A DNA stretch of 64,000 bases. Source: Clostridia bacterium. GTDB taxonomy: Bacteria; Bacillota; Clostridia; Oscillospirales; CAG-272. The notes beneath the pieces are model-generated. The model ran no database searches and was not told where the DNA came from. It was given only the letters and a program-made list of their open reading frames with translations. A program made the position numbers and the translations under genes. Position 1 is the first letter of the stretch; each line of letters begins with the position of its first letter. This document shows positions 1 through 63,932 of this stretch, piece after piece. The stretch lies in contig JAFTTS010000118.1 in assembly GCA_017466685.1 (NCBI GenBank), forward strand, positions 9,899-73,898, written 5' to 3'.

Positions 1-419
1 TGTGGAAGATTATTATCATTATTATCATAATAAGTGCCGCCACCAATGCAAGCAGATACATTCCCGCACCGGAGGTAATACCGCTGGTTATCGCCCAGAA
101 AAGGTACAGAAGATCAAGCGGATCCTTGACTGCGGTTCTGAATCTTACGATAGAGAGCGCACCGACCATACCGAGCGAAATAACGATATTGGTGCTTATT
201 GCAAGCGTAACCATCGCGGTGAGTACAGTCATACCGACGAGCGTCACGGCAAAGCTTCGCGAATAAATAACGCCGACGTAAAATTTACTGTAAACCAAAT
301 AGATAACGGCACCCATTATAAGTGCACAAACAAGTCCGAGCGCGATATTTGTAAGGCTCGCGCCGTCAAACGCACCCGATTCCAAAATGGATTTCTTGAT
401 AAAATCTTGTATACTCATA
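1..419 (-). CDS. DUF4956-family membrane protein (start present, C-terminus runs off the window edge)
   Basis: It is absent from the ORF track because no stop lies in the window. My translation from ATG 419-417 (GGAGA about 7 nt upstream) reads MSIQDFIKKSILESGAFDGASLTNIALGLVCALIMGAVIYLVY...SLGMVGALSIVRFRTAVKDPLDLLYLFWAITSGITSGAG. This gives TM helices plus the SIVRFRTAxKDP core I associate with DUF4956. It begins 14 nt after the VTC gene stop. Confidence 0.75.
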
Positions 420-432
420 TGTTTATCTCCTG

Positions 433-1154
433 TCAATTTTCATACCAATATTTGAAGCTGTTCATATATTCGGTTTTCTCATAGCAGAGAACATATTTTG
501 AAACCGCCGTAAATTCCGATGCCCTGTCGGGAAGTATTTCGCGGACTATCTGCGGAAGGAACTCCGTGAATTTAACCTCCATAACGCATTTTCCGGGTTC
601 TAAAACAGGAAGCGCAGGCAATGTGGGATCGAATATATCGAAGCTTCCGATCGCCGCTCGCACGTCCGAGTCAAAGGTGATCCTGACTGTTCCCTCGTCA
701 ATTATCCACGGTTCACGCTCATAGTCAACAATAGTCCTCGGACGCATCACGTTGCTCATACATTCAAAGTAAAACTCGCGGCAAAGCGGCTTATCACTTT
801 TCAGAAGAAAATCATAACGCCGTCGAGTATCTTATATACCTCATCCTTTGTCAGCGAGGCGGATTCCTTGAATATATAGCTTCCGAACTTCTTTTTTCGC
901 TCGAGCTTGATACTGCTGTCCGAGCAGTCATATATGCGGATTCTGTATTTCTTTCGTCTGAGAACACCTGCGTCCTTTTCTTCATATGCCGAATTGTAAT
1001 AATCGTCAAAATAAAGACTTCTGAGCATATAACCGCCGTTTTTTGCGTGCTTGTCAAGCTTGAGTACAGGTGACAGACGGTTGCATATCGCTGCCTTTTG
1101 TGCCGTATCGATAAGATACTTCCATTCGTTTCGATAACGCTCAGTCTTCGACAT
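433..1154 (-). pseudogene. VTC-domain (polyphosphate polymerase-like) gene split by an apparent frameshift near 811-830
   Basis: ORFs 801..1154 (RYRNEWKYLI..., the VTC N-terminal signature) and 433..759 (RPRTIVDYEREPW...EVKF...) together make about 225 aa, the usual VTC length. The downstream frame is open back to a TAA at about 829-831 and reads ...YDFLLKSDKPLCREFYFECMSNVMRP, continuing the family sequence. A 1-nt indel between ILDG and YDFLL would restore one ORF. Confidence 0.6.
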
Positions 1155-2892
1155 ATGTATCCTCCACTATGCCGCCGTCAGCGTTGACATAGAAGCATCT
1201 TGTACCGTAAACTTTGCCGTTTTCCGTAATATAATAGTCAAACGCATACTGGCTGTTTCCGCTCTGATCCTTCGCCGAAACACGCATAAAATACTGTCCC
1301 TCGGGAAGAAGCTCAAACTCGACCGTCGGAATAACGATATCCTCTTTTTTGAAGATAACTTCACTGAAAGCACAGTCACGTGCAAGCTCAAAGGTGTAGG
1401 TTATATTCTCCGCATCAAAATCGTAAGAAGCTTCCCAATCAACCGTTATTTTGCCGTTTTTACTTGTCGGCGTTCCGATAAAGAACGGAAGCGGCTTTTC
1501 GAGCGATTCCTTGTAACGAAGATAATTCGCCTCAACCTCTGCAAAGCAGGCGTCTGCAACAATGTCATATTCCTCCTCGGTAAGCGGCGCATATATACTG
1601 TCAATTCCGCTGTACACGTAAGGTTTCAAAAGCTCGGAATATGTATTAACCATAGAATTTATACGCTCGGCATTCAGATATTCGCGAAGATCATTCATCG
1701 CGCCGTCAAGTGCCTCGCGGAACACCTCCGATTTAAGGCATCTTCTGAACAGTACATTTCCCCAATAATTGCTGACTCCGCTTTCCCATTCGCTGTAATC
1801 GCTTCGGTTGTTGACCTCATGCTCGGCACGCTTTAAGAGCGCATCGTTGTCCCATGCGAGGATATACCACCGTTCACTGTTGAGCGGACTGTACATATAG
1901 AAATTTCGGTTCTGCGTGTCAACGTTTCCGATAAGGATCTGGAATGCCATCCAGTATGCAATGTTTTCAATGTCAAAATGCTCGTTAAGAATATTCTCTA
2001 TCGGAATCGAATAATCGTTTATCTTTTCAAGCAGAGAGATAAGCTTTGTATGATCGTCGCTTCCCTTGGTTTCGAGTATCGCCTCAAAGGCGGCGGCATC
2101 GTATTCGGGATCGCTTGTGAGACGTATCTCATCCTCATATCTGTAAAACTCACAGACGTTTATCTTGTAAAGATGACCGTTTTTGTCAAGCCCGTGAGTC
2201 TTGAGTGCAGTTTTGTTGAGCTGCTCGACCTGGGTGTAAATTCCGTAATCCTCAAATTTTGCACCCTCACCCGAGGTTGTGTCCTTAACATAGAGGTGAA
2301 CAAAGGTCGTTCGCAGGCTCATAAGCTCATCAATTCCCGAAAGCAGATCAAAGCCGAGCTTGTTACGGAAGCGTAAACCGTCGCCCTGATGCTTGTTGAG
2401 TGCTATTGTCGTTTGCCCTCTCCAGTCGCCTTTATTGTCCTTTATGCTTATCTTGTAATTCTTCTGTGCATTAAGGCTGGAGCTCTGACCTCTTATCTGA
2501 ACGGTACAGTTAGGCGCAACCTGTCCGTAACCGAGCTCACCGGGAATGAGCCCATTTTCATCGCCGACCTGGATAAGTCCGGCAACCTTGTAACGGTCAA
2601 CTCCCATTCGCTCGTAATCGTAAACCGAATAGGTGTTTATCTCCTCCCAGGTGTGATCGGTGTTCTCCGCCGAGTTTCCCATAGAGACCGTCAGATACAT
2701 TGTAACGATTTCGGTATTATTCTGATTTTCATATAAAAGCGACTTATCACGGATGTGTATATCCTCCGAATCCGAGATTTCGGGAACGTCAACGCTTGTA
2801 CCGAGATCGGTGTTCACAGCCTCCTCACATCCGACATTACCGAGCAATATCGCAGACAGAAGTAAAACCGCCGCAAGCCTCTTTATCTTCAT
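1141..2892 (-). CDS. cotH: CotH-family atypical protein kinase, predicted lipoprotein
   Basis: 583 aa. Signal/lipobox MKIKRLAAVLLLSAILLGNVGC. CotH-like blocks ALNKHQGDGLRFRNKLGFDLL and NRNFYMYSPLNSERWYILAWDNDALL. The start ATG overlaps the pelG TGA (ATGA at 2889-2892). Confidence 0.85.
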   Translation of the reverse strand: MKIKRLAAVLLLSAILLGNVGCEEAVNTDLGTSVDVPEISDSEDIHIRDKSLLYENQNNTEIVTMYLTVSMGNSAENTDHTWEEINTYSVYDYERMGVDRYKVAGLIQVGDENGLIPGELGYGQVAPNCTVQIRGQSSSLNAQKNYKISIKDNKGDWRGQTTIALNKHQGDGLRFRNKLGFDLLSGIDELMSLRTTFVHLYVKDTTSGEGAKFEDYGIYTQVEQLNKTALKTHGLDKNGHLYKINVCEFYRYEDEIRLTSDPEYDAAAFEAILETKGSDDHTKLISLLEKINDYSIPIENILNEHFDIENIAYWMAFQILIGNVDTQNRNFYMYSPLNSERWYILAWDNDALLKRAEHEVNNRSDYSEWESGVSNYWGNVLFRRCLKSEVFREALDGAMNDLREYLNAERINSMVNTYSELLKPYVYSGIDSIYAPLTEEEYDIVADACFAEVEANYLRYKESLEKPLPFFIGTPTSKNGKITVDWEASYDFDAENITYTFELARDCAFSEVIFKKEDIVIPTVEFELLPEGQYFMRVSAKDQSGNSQYAFDYYITENGKVYGTRCFYVNADGGIVEDTYVED

Positions 2893-4346
2893 TTTGTCCT
2901 GTCCTCCAATTTATCCTCTAAAAATACGCCAAGACGGGTAAACATTCCCGATCTGTCCTCGGCGACAAGCGGCTGAACCGATAAAATATAATAAGGCAGC
3001 CGTTTGGTGAAATAATCGAGCCTTAATGTACACAACACAACAAAGATCATCGCCGCAAGCAAGAATCCGAAGCCGTAGAATACATACGGGAAGAAAAGCG
3101 AGATCACCGTGAAAATGACCGTCGTCGCCGCAAAAACGCCCGTGGTCAGCATTGCACCTCTGTAATCGGTGAAATAAAGAAGAATCAGCATCATCATGTT
3201 TCCGATGGCGTAAAGACCGTAGGCAACGCAGAGGGTTCTGAAATAACCGCGCATGATCTCGTTAAAGCCAAGCGGCAGAAGATCGAGCAGATATCCGCCG
3301 AGTGCAATACACGCCGCAGTGAAAAGAAGCTGCTTTAATGAGGTGTAAAAAATCTCTGTCTTAAGGGTTGTCAGCATTTCCTTTTCGGATTGCTTGATGT
3401 CGTTTATCGTTCCCTTGTCGTTATAAAGACTGTAATGATTGCGGTATTTCGGATAAAAATTGACCTCAACGGAAACAACAAAATTCACAGTTGTCATAAT
3501 CGCTGTCATAAAAGCAAGCAGTGCAGGAACATCATGCCACGGAGCACCGTAAAAAAGCCCGTGAACGCGGACACCGATATCCGAAAACCACATGATAACA
3601 AGATGCGAAAACATACCGATATTCATAAAAAGTCCCGAAAGTGCAAGCGGCAGAAATGCGTCTATCCACTTCATAAAGGTAAACGCTCCAAGCTTTGTGC
3701 TCGGGAAATATCGGTGAAGGAGTATAACATCCCAAATAAGCATCACGCCGTATCCGACTGTTACTGCCAAAAGAAGCGATTCGATGACGGGAAGCTCAAA
3801 GGCTATCATGATCGCACCGACGATGAAAGCAACCGCAACGGCACTCAAAAACGATAAAAATACACCCTTATAATCCTTTATCGCCGTCAGATAGCTCATC
3901 GCATTCCAGACGATACCAAGCTCACCGAAAAGCACGAAGCAGAGGAAGCCTTGCATAAATGTCGCGCCCGAGAATATGAGGAAAATTCCGTAAATAACAC
4001 TTCCGACCGCCATAATGATAACCGTCGAACCCCAGAATGATGGCAGCACCGCACCGTTATTTTCCTCAAAAAGCATATCGGCGACGTATCTTGTAACGAC
4101 CATCGAGAAAAACGATGATACACTGACCGAAAAAAGCAGCGTGTAGGTTATCATACAAATAAGCAGCTCACGCGAATAAACGTCAACTTTCGCAAACGAG
4201 CAAAGTACCATTATTCCAAGCAGTAAAACGACACCGAGCAGCATCGGACCTGCACAGATAACAGTCGCATATCCGTATGCCTTGGCGGAGTTAAGGACTC
4301 CCTTTTTAAGAAACAGCTTTTTTAATTCGAAGCCGATACCTGCCAC
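2889..4346 (-). CDS. pelG: Pel exopolysaccharide export/polymerisation membrane protein PelG
   Basis: 485 aa polytopic membrane protein. The N-terminus (M/V)AGIGFELKKLFLKKGVLNSAKAYGYATVICAGPMLLG matches the characteristic PelG start. GTG start with GAGGTGG 7 nt upstream. It overlaps the pelF end. Confidence 0.85.
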   Translation of the reverse strand: MAGIGFELKKLFLKKGVLNSAKAYGYATVICAGPMLLGVVLLLGIMVLCSFAKVDVYSRELLICMITYTLLFSVSVSSFFSMVVTRYVADMLFEENNGAVLPSFWGSTVIIMAVGSVIYGIFLIFSGATFMQGFLCFVLFGELGIVWNAMSYLTAIKDYKGVFLSFLSAVAVAFIVGAIMIAFELPVIESLLLAVTVGYGVMLIWDVILLHRYFPSTKLGAFTFMKWIDAFLPLALSGLFMNIGMFSHLVIMWFSDIGVRVHGLFYGAPWHDVPALLAFMTAIMTTVNFVVSVEVNFYPKYRNHYSLYNDKGTINDIKQSEKEMLTTLKTEIFYTSLKQLLFTAACIALGGYLLDLLPLGFNEIMRGYFRTLCVAYGLYAIGNMMMLILLYFTDYRGAMLTTGVFAATTVIFTVISLFFPYVFYGFGFLLAAMIFVVLCTLRLDYFTKRLPYYILSVQPLVAEDRSGMFTRLGVFLEDKLEDRTK

Positions 4347-5752
4347 TCGTTTTCCACCTCTTTATATAGATCTCTGTATTTTGTCAGCATGATGTGATAT
4401 CTGAAATATGTATATGCACGCTTCTGTCCGATCTCGCCCATTTTAAGCCGCAGCTCACGTGAATCGCAAAGCAGCTCCATCGCGTCCGCAAGCTTTTCTC
4501 TCTGCATCGGCGGAACAAAATATCCCGCTTTTCCGAGCGTATCGGATGGACCGCCGTTCAAAAGCTCGTTGCAGCATCCAACGTCCGTCGTAACACAAGG
4601 TCTGCGTGCCGCGAACGATTCAAGCACCGAAAGGGGTTGTCCCTCGGAAATACTTGTAAGCAGCGTAAAATCAAGCTTTTCAAAATATTCAATGATATTG
4701 ACACGTCCCGTGAATATGATCTTGTTTTCAAGTCCGAGCTGTTTTGTGAGCGCGTAACATTCGTCGGCATATTCCTGATCGTCAACACCGCCCATTATAT
4801 GCAGGCGCACGTTATCTTTTCTGCAGGAAAGCTCGAAAAAGGCATATATCATGGTCTTGATATCCTTGATCGGCGCAAGCCTTACAACCGCACCTATGTC
4901 AACGATACCGTCATCCTCTTTAAGCGGAATGTCACACAAACGCTCATAGCTGATACCGTTCTCGATAACTCTGCACCTTTCCGCTTTTGCCCCCATGTCG
5001 ATCTGCGTATGCATCGCACGTGTGAAAAGCGACGTGATACGAAATGCTCTGTCATACGTAAGATCGGAGAGCATATAGAAAAAGTCTATCCAGTGCGGCT
5101 TGAAGGCACGCGAAACCCATTTTGCGCGGATTATTTCTTCTTCACGTTCACGGGTATATATTCCGTGTTCGGTTAAAAGCATCGGCTTTTTGTTTATGTA
5201 TGCGCCCATCGAAGCGAGCATACCGCCGTAACCCGTACATATAGCATGATATACGTCCGCATCGGGAATCTCCGTACCCATCAGATAAAGCACCGGGAGA
5301 AGCCTTGAGCGAACCGAATGAAAAGCATCCGAAAAAGCGATGAACGGAAATTCCTTTTTGCAGGTTTCTGTAAGCGTTTCGAGGAAGCTTTCACTTTTAA
5401 GGTACGACATCGGATTTATCCGCTTAACCTGATACATATCAAAAAGCAGATCCCAATCGGGCTTATCGGAAGCAACGAGACGGCGCAGTGCCTCCTTTTC
5501 CTTTTCAGAGAAGGAGTGATGAAACACACCGCGATCCTTTACCCTCAGCGCATCGTCAAGGAAAACCTGATATACCTCCGAGACATTTTCGGGAAGCGTA
5601 TAAACAAACTTGTCCTTATCCTCAGCCTTCGCGCCGATAACCCAAAGGACAAATTCATGCTCGGGCATTTCGTTTATATATTGGTGCATCCAAGTGGAAA
5701 CACCGCCGTTTATATAGGGATAACAGCCTTCCAAAATCAAACAGATTCTCAC
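4322..5752 (-). CDS. pelF: Pel glycosyltransferase PelF (GT4 with DUF3492-type N-terminus)
   Basis: 476 aa. The N-terminus RICLILEGCYPYINGGVSTWMHQYI resembles the PelF signature LLEGTYPYVxGGVSSWVHQLI. The C-terminal half is GT4-like (SISEGQPLSVLESFAARRPCVTTDVG). GTG start with AGGAG 6 nt upstream. Confidence 0.88.
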   Translation of the reverse strand: MRICLILEGCYPYINGGVSTWMHQYINEMPEHEFVLWVIGAKAEDKDKFVYTLPENVSEVYQVFLDDALRVKDRGVFHHSFSEKEKEALRRLVASDKPDWDLLFDMYQVKRINPMSYLKSESFLETLTETCKKEFPFIAFSDAFHSVRSRLLPVLYLMGTEIPDADVYHAICTGYGGMLASMGAYINKKPMLLTEHGIYTREREEEIIRAKWVSRAFKPHWIDFFYMLSDLTYDRAFRITSLFTRAMHTQIDMGAKAERCRVIENGISYERLCDIPLKEDDGIVDIGAVVRLAPIKDIKTMIYAFFELSCRKDNVRLHIMGGVDDQEYADECYALTKQLGLENKIIFTGRVNIIEYFEKLDFTLLTSISEGQPLSVLESFAARRPCVTTDVGCCNELLNGGPSDTLGKAGYFVPPMQREKLADAMELLCDSRELRLKMGEIGQKRAYTYFRYHIMLTKYRDLYKEVENEWQVSASN

Positions 5753-5761
5753 AGTTGACTC

Positions 5762-7603
5762 CTATTTGAAGGATACCGTAACCGTTTGTTTATCTGCAAC
5801 AAGCAAATAAAGATCTCCCGTTAAATGGGTAAGTGTTCCGCCGGACACGGTATCGGGAATTTTAGTATTGAAGCGCACAAAGAGCTGTGCTTCATCATAG
5901 AAATTATCAAGTGTTATAATCATTTTGTCATCGTAGGTTTCACATTCGGGTGCAACCGCAACAAAACGCTGAACAGCCGCAGAAAGCTCCGAGCCGGTCA
6001 GATTTCGAAGTGACGGTGCACTGCCGTAAAGCCATGACAAAAACTCATTAAATTTCGCTTTCATAGTTTCCCATCCCAGCTCTGCACCGCGCTCCGGGTC
6101 AAGAGCATCGTCGGGATGAGTAAAATGATCATTGACAAAATGAAGATTCAACTCGGAAATTGCGGCTATCTTCATAAAATCGTTTATATCACAGCCCGAA
6201 ATTATACGCGGCTGATCGACGACACCGTTCTTTGCTGCATCAAACTCCTGAACCAGCGCAAAATCAAGCTGTGCATCCGGGAAATAGATACCCGAAAGAG
6301 TTTTGATCTGCGGATATTCCTTTATCAGAAATTCCCTGCCCTCTTTGGAAAGCAGATTTGACGGAGGAACGTAAACTGCCATCTCAACGTCGGGAAACAG
6401 CTCGTCACAGAAAGACTCCAGCTCATCAAAAGCCGTTTTCATCGCCGCATAGCTTTCCCAGGTTTTATATTCGTATATTCCCTTATAGTCGCAGTTGTCA
6501 AAGCAGAGCGGCTGGTGATTATATCCGTGGTAACCGATCTCCCCACCTTTGCGAAGAAGCATATTTCCGAAATTAAGAAATGTTCCCGTGTCGGGAGTTG
6601 CATTGATCGTACCGTCAACAGCATTGTCATAACATTCTATTGCAAGTCCCGTATATTTCATGCCGTATTTGTCGGCAAGGTTCATCATATCGGGCCACCA
6701 GATGTTTATGTAGAAATCACGTATGGTCGTGCTGTAATCGCGCTCGATATATTCACTGTTTCCGTCCGGTATCTGCGAGGGAAAATCGTCAAGATAAAAT
6801 GCAGAGCCGTTTATTACGGGGTACACGCAAACATCCGTGAGCAGACTGTACGATGCGGCATAAAAACCACGGAAGGCTTTGTCGTAAACTCCGATATTAG
6901 CAGCAACAAATACACCGTCACCGTAAACCTTTTTCCAGATAAGCGGCACACCGTCCACCTCGCTTGTTGCGGCGTAAACTGTAACACCGTCCTGTGAAAG
7001 CTGCAGTGTCCTTGCCGAATCAAAGCCATCGGGAATACCGAAGCTCTCACCGCCGCCGACCATAAAGTCGGGAAAAACGTAGATATTATCTACCGGATAA
7101 TACGACTCACCGCAGTCAACGATTCCGAGCTTGGCATCGACCACGGATGAATAAGGATTCGTCTCAAGCGTCAGTGGCAGATAAAGATTACCGCCGCCGT
7201 AAACCCAATCGCAAATTGATATAATACCCTCGCCAACCGGTGTCAGATCACTGAGAAGCAGGACTATAACCGTATAATCTTCAAAATCCGGTAACTTCTC
7301 CGTCGCAAGGTCAACGCAGTCACGTCCAACCTTCATGTCATCGAAAATAACCGTGAACTGACTGAAGATATCCCCGGCACCGGGCTCGTCACTGTTCCAT
7401 AAAACAAGCGTGTCTTTTTTGAGCGACGAACACGCTTCGCTTTTTGTAACGATTCTTTCCTCGGGCAAAAAATCAAGCTTCTTCGTGGTGTAATTAAACT
7501 GTATACCGTATAGCTCAACAAGCAGGATCAGCGAAATCAGCATAAATACAAGAACGATCACAATAACGCCCTTATATCTGAAATTCCGTATTGCCAATTT
7601 CAT
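5762..7603 (-). CDS. pelA: PelA-like polysaccharide deacetylase (DUF2194 type), membrane anchored
   Basis: N-terminal TM helix. It has a CE4-like metal/acid motif region (GYHGYNHQP) and sits between pelE and pelF, as the deacetylase-only PelA does in Gram-positive pel loci. I place the start at ATG 7603, which overlaps the pelE stop as ATGA. The ORF track starts 9 nt earlier at a TTG. Confidence 0.7.
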   Translation of the reverse strand: MKLAIRNFRYKGVIVIVLVFMLISLILLVELYGIQFNYTTKKLDFLPEERIVTKSEACSSLKKDTLVLWNSDEPGAGDIFSQFTVIFDDMKVGRDCVDLATEKLPDFEDYTVIVLLLSDLTPVGEGIISICDWVYGGGNLYLPLTLETNPYSSVVDAKLGIVDCGESYYPVDNIYVFPDFMVGGGESFGIPDGFDSARTLQLSQDGVTVYAATSEVDGVPLIWKKVYGDGVFVAANIGVYDKAFRGFYAASYSLLTDVCVYPVINGSAFYLDDFPSQIPDGNSEYIERDYSTTIRDFYINIWWPDMMNLADKYGMKYTGLAIECYDNAVDGTINATPDTGTFLNFGNMLLRKGGEIGYHGYNHQPLCFDNCDYKGIYEYKTWESYAAMKTAFDELESFCDELFPDVEMAVYVPPSNLLSKEGREFLIKEYPQIKTLSGIYFPDAQLDFALVQEFDAAKNGVVDQPRIISGCDINDFMKIAAISELNLHFVNDHFTHPDDALDPERGAELGWETMKAKFNEFLSWLYGSAPSLRNLTGSELSAAVQRFVAVAPECETYDDKMIITLDNFYDEAQLFVRFNTKIPDTVSGGTLTHLTGDLYLLVADKQTVTVSFK

Positions 7604-8475
7604 TTTTTCCAAAATGCGAGCGCCTCCTTTGCCGAAATATACGTTTTGTTATTTTCAACTTCCTCAATAAGCTTCCTTATCTGTGCGCCGTCACCGACTG
7701 ATGCAAGGTATTCAAGCTTTAAAAGTATGTATTCCTCGGTATCACGCCAGCTATAAGCCATTTCGTCAAGCGCCCTCTCTGCCTCAAAGTAATTTTTGCG
7801 CTTTAACTCGTTTTTGATAAGACGCGAATAATCGTTAATGTCACTGCTGTGCTCAAGCTTTTTGTTCATCAAGGTTGAGAAAAGCTCGCGGTTCAAAACC
7901 TCAACCTGTCCCTGCATGAGATTCTGCGAAAGACAGCTCCACAAAAACTCGGTATACTCGCAAAGCACATCGTTATCATCGGGATACAGCGAATACTTAC
8001 GCTCAAGCTCCTGCAGTCTGTAGTCATTTTCCTTTGAAATTTCGACCATCGCCGTCACCGCATAGTGAACGACCTCGGTGTCATCGTTATTGCCTGCTTT
8101 TTGAAGAAACTCAACATACTCCTTGGGATTATCATTGAGAACATCCATGATTATCGAACGTCGCTCTCCCGCAGAATTGATGAGAAGTGCTTCCTCAATC
8201 GGAACGGTCGAATCGGCAACCTTTTTGTCGTCAACGGTAACACTTTTGTAAAGCTCCGATTCAAGCTTCATTTTTTCAACGCCGACGTCGATACTGTCAT
8301 CGGCATCAAACGCAATCTGAAAATGCAGAATGAGCACAAGAAGCAATCCCCAGAACGGCAAAAGCAGGGATACAAAAAACATATATTTATGAACCTTCAG
8401 TATGCCGAGCCGTATTCCGAAAAAAACGAGCAGACAGCATACCAGGTGCAGTACCGCGAGGATAAGAAATAACAT
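7600..8475 (-). CDS. pelE: PelE-like protein (two N-terminal TM helices plus helical-repeat domain)
   Basis: 291 aa. It has two hydrophobic helices in the first 55 aa, then an alpha-helical repeat-like soluble part. Its position between pelD and pelA matches the pelDEA order. The assignment rests on architecture and synteny, not on a strong motif. Confidence 0.6.
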   Translation of the reverse strand: MLFLILAVLHLVCCLLVFFGIRLGILKVHKYMFFVSLLLPFWGLLLVLILHFQIAFDADDSIDVGVEKMKLESELYKSVTVDDKKVADSTVPIEEALLINSAGERRSIIMDVLNDNPKEYVEFLQKAGNNDDTEVVHYAVTAMVEISKENDYRLQELERKYSLYPDDNDVLCEYTEFLWSCLSQNLMQGQVEVLNRELFSTLMNKKLEHSSDINDYSRLIKNELKRKNYFEAERALDEMAYSWRDTEEYILLKLEYLASVGDGAQIRKLIEEVENNKTYISAKEALAFWKK

Positions 8476-8489
8476 TTTTAATTCATCCC

Positions 8490-11279
8490 TTAATGCAAAA
8501 TTGAAACCGTAATACCGAGAGACTCAAATCTCGGCAAAATAAAATCAAGATCCTTTTCTGTCGCCTGTGAGAGCAGAAGTCGCACTCTTCCGTTATCGGA
8601 TGCACCTAAAATATCGTTGGTACGAACCTTACCGATAAGCATCTGCTCTGCCTGTCCATAGCTCTTTTCGCCAAAGTCAAGCTCTAAGAGAACATACAAG
8701 GAAACCTTTCTCTCGGCAAGACTTTCGAAATTTGCAAGAGCTTCGTCAAATGCCTCTTTATTCATGATGTGAGTATTCTCGATGTACTGCTTATCGTGAA
8801 CTGCGCTGTTATAGTCGTATGCACGAAGCAGTGACATCTCGGCAAGGTCACGCAGTATCTTAAAGAGATTGACATAATAGAGCGAGCGCTGATCGGCATC
8901 CGCGTGCCATAAGAATATCACAAGCACAAGCTTACCGCCTCTGCGAACACCTGCCGCATACATCGGAAAATCGGGAATAAGCTCGGTGTTTCGCCAGATC
9001 TCACCCTCGTCAAGCTCTTTGATAACGGGTGCGTATGTATCGGTTGAGATCGAACGCGAAACGCTTGCGATAATATCACGCGAAGCAACCTCAAGTCTGC
9101 CGAACGCACTGTTCTCGGTGACAGAATAAACAGTGATATTTTTATTCTCGAGAACCGTCTCAAAGGTGTCCATAATACGAAGATAAAGCTGATGAGGCTC
9201 GACTGTGTTAAGCTTTCTTGTTATATCAAAGATCTTACCGAAGCTGTCCTTTGAACCGATGATCTGCTTTTTGAGATCGCGTTTTTCACGGAAGGTGTCC
9301 TCATAAAGCTCACGTGTGAATACCAGCTTGTCTTCAAGAAGCTTGTTCTGCTCATTAACAAAGGCGATCTTGTCGTCATATTTAAGCTTGATATAACCGC
9401 ACAGTGCGCCGACAAGGAAGAAGAACACAAAAGCCAGCCAGTTCGTCGGCTCATAGAAGATCGTCAGCGGATTTGTTCCCGAAGCGACCTTCGCAAAGAA
9501 CCACGACACACTACTGAGCGCAGATGCGGCAATTCCGAAATAGAGTCCGTGAGTTGTACCCATGACAACGATATAGACCATTCTGAAATCAACGATTGAG
9601 AAGATCACCGCCGAATCGGTTATATGCAGGAAAAATTCGGTTATTATAAAGAGCAAAAACAGCTCGATTATTTTTACGATACGTGTATGCCGAGCGAGGA
9701 AGCTTTTGATTTTGTCAAAGAGCGTAAGAGTTTTTTCGTTCCTTGCTTCGAGGAAGCGTGTATATTCCTCGGAGAGATTTTCAAGTATGGAAATCTTCGA
9801 AAACCAACCGTATTCATTTCGTAGTGCTTTATTGTTAACGGCTAAAGTCTTTGATGGCACACTACCCTGAAAATCGAATTTCACGTCATCACATAGAGTT
9901 GTAAGTCCATCTGCAAGATCATCGAAAGTAAGACCAAAATCATCGTTAACGGTCATAATACCGCTTCCCGAATTCCAGTTGTCCATGATTCTCGCGACAA
10001 GCTCCGCAAGGTCACACATCGATAAGAAATACATCCTTGAAGTCGCACTCTCGGCAAGCTCCACCGTTTCTCCATCATGCATCCGCTCAAAGATACGGTA
10101 AAGGAAATCACGCTTATCGACTCCCGAATAAAGGTACGGAATCTGCACCGTTTTAATGTCGAGCGATTTTTCCTTGGCGTAATATTCGCAGAGCCTTTCC
10201 TTTGCTGCGGACAGCACTGCTTTATCGGTCTGCGGTGTAAGCGAGGAATCGAGCGAGGCAAGATACAGCACCCTCATATCGGGATTCTTCTCCGAGGCAC
10301 ATTCAAGAACCTCACGAAACTCCTCCGAATCGCTTTTTTCGGTGGAATCATATGTAAGCTCACCCGAAAAATACACAACCGCATCAAAATCGTATGTATC
10401 AAAAACAGCCTGTACAGACGGCTTTTTTATCTTGAAAAGCTTGATTTTTGTATTTGTGTCAAGCTCTGTGTTTCCAACAACGGTAACCTTGCTCGTCGAG
10501 AACGCGGTTTCGATAAATTCACGTGTCAGATACTGCGTATTTCCGATGCACAAAACACGTCCGGGAAGCGTACTTCCGTGATCGTTTACAACAGCGCGTC
10601 GAAGATCAAGCTTTTCACGCAGGGACACAAGAGTTTTGTGATTGACAACCTTCATAAGCGCATCAAGCAAGGTCTCGTCAAAAACTCCGCACATACCGCT
10701 TGATATCATCTGCACCGCGGCATCCTGTGAAATCGCTTCCTTATAGCTTCGTGAGCTTGTGAGTGCATCATAGGAATAGGCAAGCGCAACGACCTGTGCA
10801 CTGATCGGAACATCATCACCGCGAGCACCGTCCGGATAACCCGTGCCGTCAATACGTTCATGGTGAGCTCGTGCGATCTCGGCGGCATATTTTTTAATAA
10901 GCGGATCGATATCACCAAAATCGGTTTCGTTTATTATATTCTCGCCGAATACCGAGTGCTTTTTAACGATATCGTATTCAAGCGGCGAGAGCTTTCCCGG
11001 GTAATCGAGAATACTTTTCGGGATCTGCGATTTTCCGATGTCATGAAGCGATGACGCTATGGCTATGGCGTTTATATGCTCTTCGCCAAGCTCATGCACA
11101 GTACCGTCTTCGACAAGCTGACGCAGAAGCAGCTCGGTCATCATTCTGACTCGGTAAACATGAAAACCGCTTTCACCGTTAAGAGTTTCCGGAATGGCAT
11201 TATCGGTTATATATTCAATTTTCAAGGTGAATACGTCGCCCGACATATCCATGACCAAAACCGGATTCCCCTGATTCAT
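8490..11279 (-). CDS. pelD: PelD-like c-di-GMP receptor with extra N-terminal HD-GYP domain (HD-GYP / degenerate Rossmann-like / 4 TM / GAF / degenerate GGDEF)
   Basis: 929 aa. The domain order is:
- aa 40-215: HD-GYP, with H40xxRV, SLHDIGK (nt 11040-11045) and HHERIDGTGYP (nt 10833-10865).
- aa 240-520: an epimerase/SDR-like fold lacking a clean GxxGxxG.
- aa 535-640: four TM helices.
- C-terminus: a GAF-like region and a GGDEF-like domain with RTND (RxxD I-site, nt 8613-8624) followed by a degenerate SDNGR in place of GGDEF. Confidence 0.8.
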   Translation of the reverse strand: MNQGNPVLVMDMSGDVFTLKIEYITDNAIPETLNGESGFHVYRVRMMTELLLRQLVEDGTVHELGEEHINAIAIASSLHDIGKSQIPKSILDYPGKLSPLEYDIVKKHSVFGENIINETDFGDIDPLIKKYAAEIARAHHERIDGTGYPDGARGDDVPISAQVVALAYSYDALTSSRSYKEAISQDAAVQMISSGMCGVFDETLLDALMKVVNHKTLVSLREKLDLRRAVVNDHGSTLPGRVLCIGNTQYLTREFIETAFSTSKVTVVGNTELDTNTKIKLFKIKKPSVQAVFDTYDFDAVVYFSGELTYDSTEKSDSEEFREVLECASEKNPDMRVLYLASLDSSLTPQTDKAVLSAAKERLCEYYAKEKSLDIKTVQIPYLYSGVDKRDFLYRIFERMHDGETVELAESATSRMYFLSMCDLAELVARIMDNWNSGSGIMTVNDDFGLTFDDLADGLTTLCDDVKFDFQGSVPSKTLAVNNKALRNEYGWFSKISILENLSEEYTRFLEARNEKTLTLFDKIKSFLARHTRIVKIIELFLLFIITEFFLHITDSAVIFSIVDFRMVYIVVMGTTHGLYFGIAASALSSVSWFFAKVASGTNPLTIFYEPTNWLAFVFFFLVGALCGYIKLKYDDKIAFVNEQNKLLEDKLVFTRELYEDTFREKRDLKKQIIGSKDSFGKIFDITRKLNTVEPHQLYLRIMDTFETVLENKNITVYSVTENSAFGRLEVASRDIIASVSRSISTDTYAPVIKELDEGEIWRNTELIPDFPMYAAGVRRGGKLVLVIFLWHADADQRSLYYVNLFKILRDLAEMSLLRAYDYNSAVHDKQYIENTHIMNKEAFDEALANFESLAERKVSLYVLLELDFGEKSYGQAEQMLIGKVRTNDILGASDNGRVRLLLSQATEKDLDFILPRFESLGITVSILH

Positions 11280-11476: not shown

Positions 11477-12403
11477 TTATAAATCCAATCCCGCCAGATA
11501 TTCCTCTGCGAAATGAACCGCGACAGCACCGTCACTAACGGCAGTCACAACCTGACGCAGTGGCTTTGTCCTGACGTCGCCGACAGCGTAAACACCCTCG
11601 ATATTTGTCCTTGTCGTTTCGTCTGCCACGATGTAACCGTTTTCGTCGAGAATAAGCTCATCCGAAAAAAGCTCCGATGCAGGTTTTCGTCCGATACTGA
11701 CAAACAATCCGTCAAAATGAAGTTCTTTTTCCTCACCGCTCTTGAGATTCTTCAGCTTCGCGCCGGTAAGCTTCCCGTCAACGATATAATCATAAACGGC
11801 ACTATCCCATATAAATTCGACATTTTCAGCTTTAATAAGCGGTGCATGATATATTTTAGTCGCTCTCAAATTATCTCTGCGATGTATCAGATAAACCTTT
11901 TTTGCAAGATGCGAAAGATAAAGTGCATCCGCCGCGGCACTGTTTCCGCCGCCGACAACGGCAACCGTTTTGTCTTTGTAAAACCGTCCGTCACAGTGTG
12001 CACAGTAGTGAAGTCCCTTGCCGATAAGTGATTTGTCGCCGTCAAGACCAAGCTCCCTTGGATTTGCACCTGTAGCAATAACCACGGTGTATGCCGAAAG
12101 CTCTCCCGATGCAGTGAAAATCCGTTTTATCTTCCCTGAAAGCTCCACTCTCTCAACCGAGGTATACTCCGTCTTTGAACCGAAACGCTCGGCACCTGCC
12201 TGCATTTTCATACCGAGTGTGAAGCCGTCAACACCCTCATCAAAGCCGGGATAATTGTCTATAGTCCCCGTGAGCGCCATCTGACCGCCGACCGACATTT
12301 TTTCTATAACGAGTGTATCAAGTCCGGCACGTGATGCATAAAGTGCCGCAGTATATCCCGCCGGACCGCCGCCGATGATTATCATATTATAAATATGCTC
12401 CAT
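11477..12403 (-). CDS. trxB: Thioredoxin-disulfide reductase
   Basis: 308 aa. FAD motif IIIGGGPAGYTAALYASRAGL. Redox centre CAHCDG (the usual form is CATCDG). NADPH motif GGGNSA...HRRDNLRA. RBS AAAGGAG. Confidence 0.92.
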   Translation of the reverse strand: MEHIYNMIIIGGGPAGYTAALYASRAGLDTLVIEKMSVGGQMALTGTIDNYPGFDEGVDGFTLGMKMQAGAERFGSKTEYTSVERVELSGKIKRIFTASGELSAYTVVIATGANPRELGLDGDKSLIGKGLHYCAHCDGRFYKDKTVAVVGGGNSAAADALYLSHLAKKVYLIHRRDNLRATKIYHAPLIKAENVEFIWDSAVYDYIVDGKLTGAKLKNLKSGEEKELHFDGLFVSIGRKPASELFSDELILDENGYIVADETTRTNIEGVYAVGDVRTKPLRQVVTAVSDGAVAVHFAEEYLAGLDL

Positions 12404-12479
12404 TACGGTTCTCCTTTAATCGTTTTGCAATAGAGGTAATACCGGAAGCTGAACGAAGCGGATAAAACGTCTCGCCAAG

Positions 12480-12788
12480 TCAATCCTCTAAGAGCGCAAG
12501 AATCTGCACCTTCGGCATTGCACCGACAGCCTGATTTGCAACCTTACCATTTTTAAGAACAACGAGCGTCGGAATGCTCATAACGCCAAACTCGCCTGCG
12601 ATTTCCGGCTCATCGTCAACATTGATCTTTCCGACAACGATATCGTCACGCTCCTCGGCGATCTCGTCAACAAGAGGCGAAACCATACGGCAAGGACCGC
12701 ACCATTCCGCATAAAAATCGAGCAGCACGGGCTTATCGCTTCCTTTGATCGAATCGAAATTAGTTTTGTTTACACTGATAACAGCCAT
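12480..12788 (-). CDS. trxA: Thioredoxin
   Basis: 102 aa with the WCGPC active site and typical length. RBS AAAGGAG. Confidence 0.93.
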   Translation of the reverse strand: MAVISVNKTNFDSIKGSDKPVLLDFYAEWCGPCRMVSPLVDEIAEERDDIVVGKINVDDEPEIAGEFGVMSIPTLVVLKNGKVANQAVGAMPKVQILALLED

Positions 12789-13033: not shown

Positions 13034-13056
13034 GGTAAAGCATGAGAAAGGCAGTG

Positions 13057-13332
13057 ATGACGATGGACAATTCCAAAGAATCAGAGCTCTTTAATGAAGT
13101 CTACAAAGAAATCTGCTCTGAAATGGGACTTGATGCGGCAATAAAAATCTACCGGTTGTTCAAAGGTCAGCAGATAACCTTCCCCGTGCATTTATTCAAC
13201 TCCAAACGCATCGGGAGCAGTATCATCAAGGAATATGACGGCACGAATATCCGTGAATTATCAAAAAAATACGGTTATTCGGAAAAGACAATACGGCGTA
13301 TGATACGCGAGAGATTGGCGGATGTGGAGTAA
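13057..13332 (+). CDS. Mor-family-like small HTH DNA-binding protein
   Basis: About 91 aa. The pattern GQQITFPV...YDGTNIRELSKKYGYSEKTIRRMIRE resembles the Mor transcription activator family (G.qiyiP ... G.N..eLA.kY.lS...IyrIi). The ORF track starts at 13042. I prefer ATG 13057 because GAAAGG lies 5 nt upstream and the predicted transcription start is about 13040. Confidence 0.6.
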   Translation: MTMDNSKESELFNEVYKEICSEMGLDAAIKIYRLFKGQQITFPVHLFNSKRIGSSIIKEYDGTNIRELSKKYGYSEKTIRRMIRERLADVE

Positions 13333-13370: not shown

Positions 13371-14237
13371 ATGGCAATTCAAATGGGCAACTGGATCAAC
13401 GACAATCGTAAGGTCATCTCATCACTCGGAAGCTTCAAGGTTATTGAGCACCAGAAGGATCTCAGCGTCAGTCATTTAACTGCACAGAACGAATATTTTC
13501 TCTCGCAGATGAATGTCAAGTTGAGACAGGTTGAGATCGAGCTTAACGGAAGCAACACGGTTAAAACCCAGGCAGGCGCAATGCAGATGATGCTCGGTAA
13601 TATAGAAATGGCAACCGGCGTCACAGGAGCAAAGGGCTTCCTCGGTTCAATGCTCAAGGCGGCAGTAACAAGCGAATCCGCGGTGAAGCCCGAATATTCC
13701 GGTGTCGGACAGGTTATTCTCGAGCCGACATACAAGCACATCATACTTCAGGATGTCAGCGCATGGGGAGCCGGCGGCCTTGTTATTGAGGACGGTATGT
13801 TTTTGGCAAGCGAAGGAAGTGTTCAGCATAACGTCGTTGAAATATCAAATGACGTGGCAACCACACTTCTGAGCGGAGAGGGACTTTACAATCTCTGCTT
13901 CACGGGTTCGGGCGCTGTTGCACTTGAAAGCTATGTGCCGTTTGAAGAACTTATTGAAATTAATTTGCAGGACGATGTACTGAAAATTGATGGAAACATG
14001 GCAGTCTGCTGGAGCGGTTCACTTAAGCTGACAGTTGAAAAGACCACAAAGAGTCTGCTTGGCTCGCTTGCAAGCGGTGAGGGACTTGTTAACGTTTACA
14101 GAGGCACGGGAAAGGTTTGGGTAAGCCCTGTAGCCGGAACAAAGAAGAGTTCACCTCAAACAGCCAATAACGGCAGCAGCACAGATAAAGATGCAAAATC
14201 AAGCGGCGGCGGTTTACTCGGTGCACTTTTAGGCTAA
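13371..14237 (+). CDS. AIM24-family protein (DUF124/TIGR00266-like)
   Basis: 288 aa. A beta-rich sequence with LSGEGLYNLCFTGSGAVALES and GEGLVNVYRGTGKVWV, typical of AIM24-family proteins. RBS AAAGGAG. Confidence 0.75.
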   Translation: MAIQMGNWINDNRKVISSLGSFKVIEHQKDLSVSHLTAQNEYFLSQMNVKLRQVEIELNGSNTVKTQAGAMQMMLGNIEMATGVTGAKGFLGSMLKAAVTSESAVKPEYSGVGQVILEPTYKHIILQDVSAWGAGGLVIEDGMFLASEGSVQHNVVEISNDVATTLLSGEGLYNLCFTGSGAVALESYVPFEELIEINLQDDVLKIDGNMAVCWSGSLKLTVEKTTKSLLGSLASGEGLVNVYRGTGKVWVSPVAGTKKSSPQTANNGSSTDKDAKSSGGGLLGALLG

Positions 14238-24235: not shown

Positions 24236-25645
24236 ATGGTTTTTTCATCAACCGTCTTTCTTTTTATGTTTCTGCCTGCGGTCTGGCTTTTGCATACGCT
24301 TATTCCCGCACGCTTTATCAAGGCACGCAACATTCTGCTCGCTGCGGCAAGTCTTCTCTTTTATGCTTACGGTGAGCCTATATACATATTTTTAATGCTC
24401 GGCTCCGTCCTCTTTAACTGGGCTATGACTCTCATTATGGTAAAACAAAAAGAGGCAACACAGTCGGTCATATGCACGGTATGTGTCGCTGCTAACCTTG
24501 CAGCCCTTGCCTTTTTCAAATATGTACCGTGGCTGCTCTCACTTGTCAACTCGGCGTTTTCCACCGACTTCAGCGTTGCCGTGGATTCGATTCCCGTCGG
24601 CATTTCGTTCTATACTTTCCAGGTGCTTTCATATGTTGTTGACGTAAAACGTGGCAAAACCGAGGCGCAGAAAAGCTTCGGCGACCTGCTTCTCTATATC
24701 TCATTCTTCCCTCAGCTTATCGCAGGACCGATTGTAAAATACGACGATATCAAGGAACAAATTGCCAATCGCTCCGTCACAATAAACGGAACAGCTCTCG
24801 GTATACGCCGTTTCATTTACGGTCTTTCAAAAAAGGTACTCATATCGAACACTGCCGCTGTCGTTGCCGTAGCAGCCTTCGGAGCAGAGTCACCGTCCTC
24901 GCTTCTTGCCTGGTCGGGTGCGATATGTTACTGTATCCAGCTTTATTTTGACTTCTCGGGTTACTCGGACATGGCTATCGGTCTTGCTTCCATGTTCGGT
25001 TTTTCACTGCTCGAAAACTTCAATTACCCTTACTGTTCCGTCTCGATCCGCGATTTCTGGAAACGCTGGCACATTTCGCTCACGTCCTGGTTCCGCGAAT
25101 ATGTCTACTTCCCTCTCGGCGGTAACCGTCACGGCAAGGCTCGCACCGTTATAAACCGTCTCGCTGTATTTTTCCTGACGGGACTCTGGCACGGTGCTAA
25201 CTTCACATTTATCGTCTGGGGTATGTGGCAAGGACTTCTCATGATGCTCGAACAGTTCACCGGCGCCGAAAAATGGACAAAAAAACCGCTTCTCAAGCCG
25301 TTCTTCCATATATACACATTACTTGCCGTCTGCCTCGGATTTGTAGTATTCAATTCTCCGAGCATGGGCTTTGCCGTAAACTATATCGGAAGAATGTTCT
25401 CATTCGTCGGCGGAGCGGCAGACGCACTTTACCTTTTCTCACCCTATACGATTATGATGCTCGTATTCGGCATTGTATTCTCTCTGCCCGTGGTTCCGAC
25501 TGTTAAAAAGCTTCTTTCGAAAAATCAGACACTTGCCACCATTGGTGACACCGCAAGCTATGTTATCACGCTTCCCTTATTCGCACTCTGCGTGATGACA
25601 CTCGCTTCAACCTCGTTCAATCCGTTCATTTACTATAACTTCTGA
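24236..25645 (+). CDS. MBOAT-family O-acyltransferase (AlgI/PatA-like)
   Basis: 469 aa polytopic protein. It carries DFWKRWHISLTSWFREYVYFPLGGNRHG with the conserved His and an AlgI-like length. Confidence 0.88.
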   Translation: MVFSSTVFLFMFLPAVWLLHTLIPARFIKARNILLAAASLLFYAYGEPIYIFLMLGSVLFNWAMTLIMVKQKEATQSVICTVCVAANLAALAFFKYVPWLLSLVNSAFSTDFSVAVDSIPVGISFYTFQVLSYVVDVKRGKTEAQKSFGDLLLYISFFPQLIAGPIVKYDDIKEQIANRSVTINGTALGIRRFIYGLSKKVLISNTAAVVAVAAFGAESPSSLLAWSGAICYCIQLYFDFSGYSDMAIGLASMFGFSLLENFNYPYCSVSIRDFWKRWHISLTSWFREYVYFPLGGNRHGKARTVINRLAVFFLTGLWHGANFTFIVWGMWQGLLMMLEQFTGAEKWTKKPLLKPFFHIYTLLAVCLGFVVFNSPSMGFAVNYIGRMFSFVGGAADALYLFSPYTIMMLVFGIVFSLPVVPTVKKLLSKNQTLATIGDTASYVITLPLFALCVMTLASTSFNPFIYYNF

Positions 25646-25656
25646 GGAGGCGCAAC

Positions 25657-26748
25657 ATGAAAAAAATAATGCTCGTTATTTACTGTGCGCTCATCCTTAT
25701 ACCCTGCGCATTCTTTTCGCTCGGCATGATGATCCCAGGTGCGGCAAATACGTCAAGTTCAGCCGAGGGCGTCGAGATGCCGAAGCTTCTGACCGAGGAG
25801 CAGGGCGTATCGATCAACTCAAAATTCGGACTTGAATTTGAAAAATATTTCGCCAAGAGCTTCGCATACAGAAACAAGGTGGTCGATATTTTTTCGGCAA
25901 TCAAAACCGCTGTGTTTTCCGAGGGCAACGATCAGGTCGTAATCGGCAAGGACGGTTTCCTCTTTTTCGGCGAAACACTCGATGACTATATGGGCAGATC
26001 ACGTATGAGCGATGAGGATATAAACATCGCCGCAGATTTCCTGCTTGAATTATACAACGAATCAACCCGGAAAGGTGCAAAATTCCTTTTCGTCTGCGCT
26101 CCAAACAAAAACAGCATCTATCCCGAAATGATGCCGTCGCGTTATATCATGAACACAGACGGACGCAACCTCGACCGCTTATACAGCGCACTTGATGAGC
26201 GAGGAGTTCCCTATCTCGATCTGCGTCCGATCCTTATCGAGGCAAAAAATGAGCAGCTTGTTTACCATAAGCGTGACACACACTGGAACGCGGAGGGTGC
26301 ACGTATCGCCATCGAAGCAATTGCGGATAAGCTCTCAATGCCGATTGACGATTTTTCCGAGTACGGCAAGGTGGAGGTGACCGATTTCCCCGGTGACCTT
26401 GATGCGCTTCTTTTCCCGGAGCGTGAAATGTACGATAACAACACGGAATATAACTTTGGCGGCAAATTCACTTTCAAAAAAGCATATTCTAATATGATGG
26501 CAAACGAAATAATCGCAAACGGTACTGACGGCACGGGTAAGCTTATTATGTTCCGTGACTCATTTGCAAATGCGATGATACCGTTTTTCGCTTCAGTCAC
26601 CGAAACGTCAACCTTCAGCCGCAGCACACCGTACAGTCTTGACAACTACGATACGGCAGATTACGTCATCGTCCAAATAGCCGAACGATATATAAACACA
26701 CTCAAGCCGAGTGACGATCCCACAACAAACACAGCCAACAAGGAGTGA
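25657..26748 (+). CDS. AlgJ/AlgX-like (DHHW-type) SGNH acetyltransferase partner
   Basis: 363 aa with an N-terminal anchor. It carries YHKRDTHWN (a DxHW motif) and APNKNSIYPE. It directly follows an MBOAT gene. RBS GAGGAGG. Confidence 0.78.
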   Translation: MKKIMLVIYCALILIPCAFFSLGMMIPGAANTSSSAEGVEMPKLLTEEQGVSINSKFGLEFEKYFAKSFAYRNKVVDIFSAIKTAVFSEGNDQVVIGKDGFLFFGETLDDYMGRSRMSDEDINIAADFLLELYNESTRKGAKFLFVCAPNKNSIYPEMMPSRYIMNTDGRNLDRLYSALDERGVPYLDLRPILIEAKNEQLVYHKRDTHWNAEGARIAIEAIADKLSMPIDDFSEYGKVEVTDFPGDLDALLFPEREMYDNNTEYNFGGKFTFKKAYSNMMANEIIANGTDGTGKLIMFRDSFANAMIPFFASVTETSTFSRSTPYSLDNYDTADYVIVQIAERYINTLKPSDDPTTNTANKE

Positions 26749-26758
26749 ATCACGTTCT

Positions 26759-27910: not shown

Positions 27911-27921
27911 GGGAGGTCAAC

Positions 27922-48042: not shown

Positions 48043-48082
48043 CGCCACAGGCTGAAAAAATGCCGAGTGGCGTTCTTTATTT
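48043..48082 (+). terminator. Weak hairpin after the LysR gene
   Basis: CGCCAC (48043-48048) pairs with GTGGCG (48067-48072), followed by TTCTTTATTT. The stem is short and the loop long. Confidence 0.35.
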
Positions 48083-63815: not shown

Positions 63816-63932
63816 ATTGGTATCCTCCAAAAAATAAATTTATCTATATCCTTTCGGAATAAGCTTCAACTTGAGTTAGCAGCCGCTAACCGTTTGCCTT
63901 GAAAATAACGATCCGCAGACCGTCACCTTCAA

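Follow-up and report, generated by a model that had tools for sequence, protein, structure and literature searches.

An HD-GYP domain joined to a PelD-type cyclic di-GMP receptor in the pel operon of a Clostridia bacterium

Modular structure of the fused gene

Few biofilm polysaccharides are as widespread as Pel, whose switch, PelD, responds to cyclic di-GMP (c-di-GMP). Here we describe a pelD-type gene that lies on the minus strand (8490..11279) of a 64,000-nucleotide stretch of DNA from a Clostridia bacterium (assembly GCA_017466685.1, contig JAFTTS010000118.1; the whole stretch is called the window below). Its uninterrupted open reading frame (ORF) encodes a protein of 929 amino acids (aa) in which five modules follow one another: at the N-terminus an HD-GYP domain, of a type that normally degrades c-di-GMP, then a degenerate domain resembling short-chain dehydrogenase/reductase (SDR) epimerases, four transmembrane (TM) helices, a GAF domain and a degenerate GGDEF (dGGDEF) domain. 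The original prediction, made from the sequence of the window alone, had read the gene as a PelD-type c-di-GMP receptor covalently joined to an apparently catalytically intact HD-GYP domain, with TM, GAF and degenerate GGDEF parts in its C-terminal half. The architecture so described is borne out by the translation, hydropathy, AlphaFold2 (AF2) modeling, domain matches and Foldseek fold matches set out below, while the catalytic part of the claim needs to be divided. The ATG is preceded by an A-T-rich promoter-like stretch and an AAAGGGG Shine-Dalgarno sequence, and the trxB and trxA genes on that side are not kept beside pelD in relatives; we therefore take the fusion gene to head its operon.

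The HD-GYP domain spans residues ~30-215 (10635..11192, minus strand). Pfam and NCBIfam profiles run on the whole protein detected only HD/HD_5 and Epimerase, leaving the PelD half uncovered, so that the annotation by hidden Markov models suggested with the original prediction supplied the HD_5, HD and Epimerase assignments and the GAF and GGDEF parts had to be seen by fold instead. The two HD-GYP matches, at residues ~47-195, are strong (HD_5, E = 3.5e-25, 89.2 bits against a cutoff of 27.2; HD, E = 5.6e-11). Residues 36-215 align with the HD-GYP structures 4MCW (PmGH), 5Z7C (V-cGAP3) and 4R8Z (PA4781) at E values of 1.7e-27 (for 4MCW) to 2.7e-24, a profile of the family matches 4MCW at E = 3.5e-34, and 4MCW and 4R8Z rank top when the full-length AF2 model is searched with Foldseek. 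The hallmark motifs predicted for the first ~215 residues are where they were expected, namely HVYRV at residues 40-44, HDIGK at residues 79-83 and HHERIDGTGYP, which satisfies HHExxDGxGYP, at residues 139-149 (nt 10833-10865). The motif coordinates given originally were exact apart from those of HDIGK, for which nt 11040-11045 spans just the H and D codons of a motif running over nt 11031-11045.

The catalytic residues can be compared with those of PmGH, in which eight metal ligands (E185, H189, H221, D222, H250, H276, H277 and D305) and the further essential neighbors D183, K225 and D308 have been defined (Bellini et al., PMC4159591). Seven of the eight ligands are kept in the window protein (E36, H40, H79, D80, H108, H139 and H140) and are invariant across the family of 121 sequences, as are K83 and D171 at the K225 and D308 positions and the GYP motif. 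At the D305 position, alignments to 4MCW, 4R8Z and 5Z7C place Tyr168 (codon TAT, 10776..10778, minus strand). Asp occupies it in 119 of 119 homologues, and Tyr is found only in the window copy and in the near-identical P0001, a gene from a second assembly differing by 2 nt; because it recurs there, a sequencing error can probably be discounted and Tyr168 taken as a real allele. The eight-ligand set is thus complete and invariant in the 119 relatives and incomplete in the window copy. The claim of catalytic intactness accordingly stands for the family and at most in part for the window copy, and the proviso attached to it, that metal ligands might turn out to be missing on alignment, proved true for one ligand of the eight. 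The motif RSYK (R177-K180, 10740..10751, minus strand), with R177, Y179 and K180 invariant, corresponds to RxY[K/R], which confers c-di-GMP specificity on HD-GYP domains (Galperin & Chou). On these residues the family has the look of an HD-GYP that binds metal and is specific for c-di-GMP, and the presence of E36 would make it one of the trinuclear type. Mean identity to homologues is 71% over the HD-GYP domain compared with 57% over the SDR domain, which suggests that the HD-GYP domain is under selection.

The C-terminal half required more indirect methods. No Pfam or NCBIfam model covers residues 640-929, and a separate AF2 model of this part (pLDDT 80.6) was needed since the Foldseek list for the full-length model was filled by HD-GYP and SDR matches. 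Searched against the PDB, the separate model has P. aeruginosa PelD as its top match (4ETZ_B, E = 6.7e-9), with the c-di-GMP complex 4DN0 at E = 1.7e-8; the match spans ~280 columns and takes in GAF plus GGDEF, and GAF-GGDEF cyclases come next in the list. We assign residues ~676-800 (8880..9254, minus strand) to the GAF domain, on the AF2 model and on Foldseek matches, which include PelD as well as GAF domains like that of 5W10, and residues ~801-929 (8493..8879, minus strand) to the degenerate GGDEF domain, on Foldseek matches to 4ETZ/4DN0 and GGDEF cyclases and on weak GGDEF profile matches. A profile built from 48 diverse PelD-long proteins and run against PDB sequences did not retrieve the PelD chains and gave weak GGDEF matches (E ~1e-3). 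Because sequence profiles miss PelD, the link to P. aeruginosa PelD rests on fold and gene context.

Within the degenerate GGDEF domain, the I-site motif RxxD is present as RTND (R886-D889, 8613..8624, minus strand), with R886 and D889 invariant in the 121 sequences. It is followed by ILGA and then by SDNGR (residues 894-898), DNGRV standing in place of GGDEF, in agreement with the predicted position of RTND five residues before a degenerate SDNGR. Across the 48 diverse PelD-long representatives, which share 24-40% identity, D889 and R917 are invariant and R886 is conserved in at least 90%. Arg917 (8529..8531, minus strand; R693 of A1 in this broad alignment) is a candidate second c-di-GMP-binding arginine. 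It lies 31 residues after R886, and its equivalence to R395 of B. cereus PelD is by spacing, the residues mutated in that protein being R363 and R395, 32 residues apart (PMC7112168). The C-terminal half thus has the PelD fold, the I-site, the membrane anchor and the operon setting of a PelD, and it escapes detection at the sequence level.

Between the two c-di-GMP-related parts lie the SDR-like domain and the membrane region. The former, at residues ~240-510 (9750..10562, minus strand), is identified by the Pfam Epimerase match (E = 1.7e-5), by Foldseek matches to epimerases and by a profile of 48 relatives, which finds epimerases and threonine dehydrogenases of the SDR type (E = 2.8e-16). A GxxGxxG motif was sought in this domain and not found, IGNTQYL occupying the glycine-motif position, and the Tyr and Lys positions of the SDR YxxxK motif align to Lys and Ser. 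We consider the domain degenerate because the glycine motif is lost and the YxxxK residues are replaced; the original description of a Rossmann-like segment lacking a clean glycine motif was therefore apt. A degenerate SDR has been published for clostridial 'class III' PelD (PMC7112168; PMC7890745). The membrane region, at residues ~530-636 (9372..9692, minus strand), was recognized from hydropathy and from the AF2 helices at 532-553, 565-577, 579-599 and 611 onward; a Pfam match to DUF4118 in this region is sub-threshold (E = 0.56). Since the TM helices number four, both the HD-GYP/SDR half and the GAF/dGGDEF half should be cytoplasmic.

Distribution of the fusion and its gene neighborhood

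A search with the full-length protein covered 5.8 billion proteins, from which 120 matches were listed. Among the matches listed (at least 120), all are 918-949 aa long, are covered over 98-100% of the query at 63-67% identity and contain HD_5/HD. Where they carry names, these homologues are called just 'HD domain-containing protein' and come from metagenome-assembled genomes (MAGs) of Clostridia or Acutalibacteraceae, an annotation that hides the link to Pel and leaves a protein abundant in metagenomes unrecognized. Full pel synteny is common to six MAG loci, labeled Acutalibacteraceae, Ca. Flemingiibacterium, Acetatifactor sp., Eubacteriales and two Clostridia bacteria, one of them from sheep rectum. 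The survey of PelD homologues for N-terminal HD-GYP fusions that had been suggested thus found the arrangement repeatedly, in over 120 homologues as well as in six MAG loci, all of one clade.

The portion from the SDR domain to the C-terminus was searched against 1.84 billion representatives clustered at 50% identity, giving 1075 matches. Among the best 150 of the 1075, which we inspected, only one carries the ~225-aa N-terminal extension, and it is the query's own cluster (P0121, 930 aa); the other representatives are ~700 aa long and begin at the SDR domain. The expectation that the arrangement would be unusual is supported by this count among the best 150 PelD-long representatives as well as by its absence from the PelD classes and the HD-GYP survey considered below. 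Within that set the HD-GYP fusion is restricted to one clade of gut and rumen Clostridia, comprising Acutalibacteraceae and relatives.

Three close clusters, P0122, P0271 and P0272 (697-722 aa), are without HD-GYP. P0271 (locus L007, 1678-3846) and P0122 (locus L008, 557-2701), at 714-722 aa, are 69-71% identical to HD-GYP-bearing members and have a shared promoter-like sequence on their upstream side. No HD-GYP remnant or split gene was found upstream of P0122, P0271 or P0272, where there are a promoter region, unrelated genes or no genes. A neighbor-joining tree built on the shared region places the three within the clade that carries HD-GYP. The simplest history would then be one basal gain of the HD-GYP domain in this clade, followed by a single loss, and we reject a recent fusion of neighboring genes, since there is no upstream remnant and the nesting of the HD-GYP-less relatives indicates gain followed by loss. 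Secondary loss in these three clusters implies that the HD-GYP module is an add-on to a self-sufficient PelD.

The remainder of the operon follows pelD on the minus strand and matches the clostridial/streptococcal pelDEA(DA)FG layout with accessory genes of Whitfield et al. (PMC7112168). The gene at the PelE position (7600..8475) adjoins pelD in the six loci and, by hydropathy, encodes two N-terminal TM segments and then a soluble part; it has no Pfam match. It is followed by a PelA deacetylase-type gene with an N-terminal TM segment by hydropathy (5762..7612; Pfam DUF2194, E = 5.5e-141), the pelF glycosyltransferase gene (4322..5752; NCBIfam PelF equivalog, E = 5.5e-94), pelG (2889..4346; Pfam PelG, E = 2.7e-131) and three accessory genes. 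The latter are a cotH-like kinase gene (1141..2892; Pfam CotH, E = 2.3e-70), a VTC (polyphosphate-polymerase-like) gene recognized from two VTC half-matches (433..1154), and a DUF4956 membrane-protein gene that is cut by the start of the window, leaving its 5' part (1..418), identified by comparison with the relatives L002 and L004 and by PF16316 on the source contig.

The window is part of a 129-kb metagenome scaffold (ENA ERZ28653963), from which the DNA beyond window position 1 could be read. Directly following DUF4956, on the pel strand, are a gene for a 696-aa PAS_3-dGGDEF-EAL protein and then one for a 519-aa dCache_1-HAMP-GGDEF protein (L011, 13139-16828). The first has EALLR and DDFGTG intact and a degenerate GGDEF; the second has RIGGDEF intact and is without RxxD. 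A PAS-dGGDEF-EAL gene also stands after DUF4956 in L002 and L004. L005, the most divergent fused relative (53% identity), has an intact-GGDEF gene directly upstream of the HD-GYP-pelD gene on the same strand (6404-8719), for whose product the dCache_1 match is sub-threshold. Genes of c-di-GMP turnover are physically linked to this pel type. A motif scan of the 64-kb window for GGDEF, EAL and PilZ proteins found none besides the HD-GYP protein itself.

Some other features of the neighborhood deserve mention. The VTC gene is split by a 1-nt frameshift near nt 805-815 into ORFs of 117 aa and 108 aa, a deletion relative to the intact single frame of L002. The source scaffold shows the same split, and so does a Logan contig, possibly from the same sample; either the gene is a pseudogene or the assembly is in error here. 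On the other side of pelD, directly upstream, are trxB (TIGR01292, E = 8.7e-108) and thioredoxin genes (11477-12788, minus strand), probably unrelated neighbors since they do not adjoin pelD in the six related loci. Farther along, a small ORF at 13042-13332 (plus strand), annotated as PF08765 (Mor transcription activator) on the source contig, adjoins an AIM24-family gene (13371-14237). The stretch 24236-32465 (plus strand) encodes an MBOAT (AlgI/DltB-like O-acyltransferase), two ORFs, a 719-aa RCC1-repeat protein and an 800-aa Ig-like/transglutaminase-core protein, and may be a second cluster for cell-surface polymer modification or for surface proteins. Two paralogues of the ferrous-iron transporter FeoB are located less than 14 kb apart (48081-50078 and 61767-63830, both minus strand).

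A proposed tethered sink for c-di-GMP and its alternatives

We propose that the gene couples the receptor function of a class III PelD, through RxxD and R917, to a tethered HD-GYP domain that would drain c-di-GMP locally at the Pel synthase, as a sink. The c-di-GMP would be fed by the sensor cyclase of the cluster and opposed by its EAL protein as well. We lean toward this proposal as a whole, with some reserve. The architecture, synteny, residue conservation and clade restriction are as found; the ligand binding, the hydrolysis and the regulatory logic in what follows are what we infer. In this scheme the dCache-HAMP-GGDEF cyclase, whose gene lies a short way downstream on the pel strand, would probably supply the c-di-GMP, and its occupation of the RxxD/R917 site of the degenerate GGDEF domain would turn on PelF/PelG-dependent polymerization, as in the PelD proteins of P. 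aeruginosa and B. cereus. The tethered HD-GYP domain, with its E36 and RxYK, would degrade c-di-GMP beside the receptor. Activation would then need sustained local supply and would end quickly once the supply stops, making the domain a local sink and a threshold or insulation device. The idea of a built-in signal termination or insulation device, already put forward in the original prediction, is a plausible hypothesis.

One might go further and suppose that the locus is a hard-wired, self-contained local c-di-GMP circuit for one output, in which a dCache-HAMP-GGDEF cyclase sensing extracellular signals, a PAS-gated EAL protein and a PelD with an active HD-GYP domain consuming its own ligand together make Pel activation adaptive or pulse-like and shield it from the global c-di-GMP pool, the D168Y allele and the HD-GYP-less sub-branch tuning the sink. 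We offer this extension tentatively, as possible rather than probable. How c-di-GMP signals are kept local to one output is a long-running question, and a PelD with its own phosphodiesterase domain, together with an operon cyclase and EAL protein, would provide a compact and genetically separable test of local signaling, for which the canonical relatives, the D168Y allele and the sub-branch without HD-GYP are natural controls for comparison.

Several considerations weigh against the sink proposal. The inter-domain geometry of the full-length AF2 model (pLDDT 78, pTM 0.40) is unreliable. The cluster already encodes an EAL phosphodiesterase, which makes a second sink less necessary, and the HD-GYP domain is not the sole candidate sink. 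In the window copy the D305-type ligand is replaced by Tyr168; in PmGH, D305A markedly lowers hydrolysis without abolishing it (PMC4159591). Judged by its position, D168Y probably weakens hydrolysis, leaving the window copy probably attenuated, and the allele may encode a domain that works slowly or has largely lost catalysis. The PmGH D183 position, two residues before E36 (= E185), appears by spacing only to be occupied by Asn34 (11178..11180, minus strand), which is invariant across the family. The family-profile alignment to PmGH could not be extended upstream of E185, and because the HMMER alignments begin at E36, this equivalence is positional. As D183A abolishes PmGH activity (PMC4159591), a family-wide Asn at this position means that the HD-GYP domain of the clade might be a poor enzyme. 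Lastly, at HD-GYP positions that are invariant elsewhere, the query lineage shows four singleton substitutions (L47M, I157V, D168Y and V187A), against zero in the GAF/dGGDEF part. The hint of relaxed constraint in this pattern is weak, given the long branch that the query occupies.

An alternative is that the HD-GYP domain acts chiefly as a switch that binds nucleotide, with no catalysis or a very slow one, and is a second c-di-GMP sensor tuning PelD allosterically, either in the whole clade or in the D168Y allele only. Tyr168, Asn34 and the surplus of singleton substitutions that the query lineage shows in its HD-GYP domain would all fit, and there is a precedent in DvhD, an HD-GYP c-di-GMP receptor that has lost its HD and HH motifs and shows c-di-GMP binding without hydrolysis (PMC13090378; PDB 9RBZ, which is among our structure matches). 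Whereas DvhD lost these motifs, HD, HH, H40, H108 and E36 are invariant here in 121 sequences, an invariance difficult to account for unless the domain binds metal and probably also acts as a catalyst, and even the D305A mutant of PmGH keeps detectable activity (PMC4159591). We regard this alternative as rather unlikely. An artefact of mis-assembly, or a gene call merging two genes, found no support and was rejected, its chance being practically negligible in view of the frame without interruption, the near-identical gene in a second assembly and the same fusion in more than 120 full-length homologues and six MAG loci.

The substrate might also differ from that assumed in the sink proposal. 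The HD-GYP domain could clear the linear dinucleotide pGpG to GMP after the EAL protein of the cluster linearizes c-di-GMP, averting product inhibition and pGpG build-up at the synthase. PA4781, one of the structures matched, prefers pGpG, and an EAL protein with an intact-looking active site is encoded in the cluster here, in L002 and in L004. Conservation of RxYK and other c-di-GMP-contact residues speaks against such a role, and so does the GGDEF cyclase directly upstream of pelD in L005, a locus that ends before the post-DUF4956 stretch; we find this account quite improbable. Still less probable, in our judgment, is action on another nucleotide such as 3'3'-cyclic GMP-AMP (cGAMP), or a role of the GYP motif in docking a GGDEF protein, be it the cluster cyclase or PelD's own degenerate GGDEF domain. 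HD-GYP proteins of the RpfG type do bind GGDEF proteins via the GYP motif. Some HD-GYPs are cGAMP-specific, and 5Z7C is among the structure matches, yet the Lys of RxYK is kept here, unlike in cGAMP-preferring enzymes, which carry RxxQ or RxxN (Galperin & Chou), and no cGAMP synthase was seen within the 64-kb window.

Relation to known systems

The HD-GYP fusion is not mentioned in the PelD class I-IV scheme (PMC7890745), the combination is not described in the Gram-positive pel paper (PMC7112168), and it is not mentioned in the survey of HD-GYP architectures (bioRxiv 10.1101/2021.11.05.467447). A search of the literature for an HD-GYP-PelD fusion found none; most subscription journals were outside its coverage, so that this absence is no proof. 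Domain shuffling among c-di-GMP modules is common, and the present fusion adds a fifth architecture to the class I-IV scheme, one confined to gut and rumen Clostridia.

The closest likeness is to class III PelD (SDR-DUF4118-GAF-dGGDEF; PMC7112168, PMC7890745). Residues 236-929 are collinear with PelD-long proteins of ~700 aa, and the degenerate SDR, the RxxD with a second Arg, the operon order and the CotH, polyphosphate-polymerase (VTC) and DUF4956 accessory genes are all shared; the window protein differs in adding a ~225-aa N-terminal HD-GYP domain, which is absent from classes I-IV. With the PelD proteins of P. aeruginosa (4DN0, 4ETZ) and B. cereus it shares GAF plus degenerate GGDEF, RxxD plus a downstream Arg and the four-helix anchor, whereas identity to them is only ~14%, with no Pfam or profile match, and the window protein has two extra N-terminal domains.

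As an HD-GYP protein it resembles the c-di-GMP phosphodiesterase PmGH (4MCW), an enzyme with a trinuclear iron site, to which it is 36% identical over ~190 residues, with equivalents of E185, H189, H221, D222, K225, H250, H276, H277, GYP, D308 and R314/K317. It departs from PmGH in the change of D305 to Tyr168 in the window copy and of D183 to Asn34 across the clade, and in the order of its parts, the HD-GYP domain being N-terminal and followed by the receptor, while that of PmGH is C-terminal to a sensor domain. DvhD likewise is a membrane protein whose HD-GYP domain takes part in c-di-GMP-dependent biofilm control; it is without the HD and HH ligands, both of which the PelD-fusion family keeps.

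At the E. coli cellulose synthase, DgcC and PdeK act as a local c-di-GMP module. The likeness is in a dedicated source and sink beside a synthase receptor, the window cluster encoding a sensor GGDEF protein, an EAL protein and the receptor. The difference is that the putative sink of the window cluster is covalently within the receptor subunit itself, and not a separate interacting protein.

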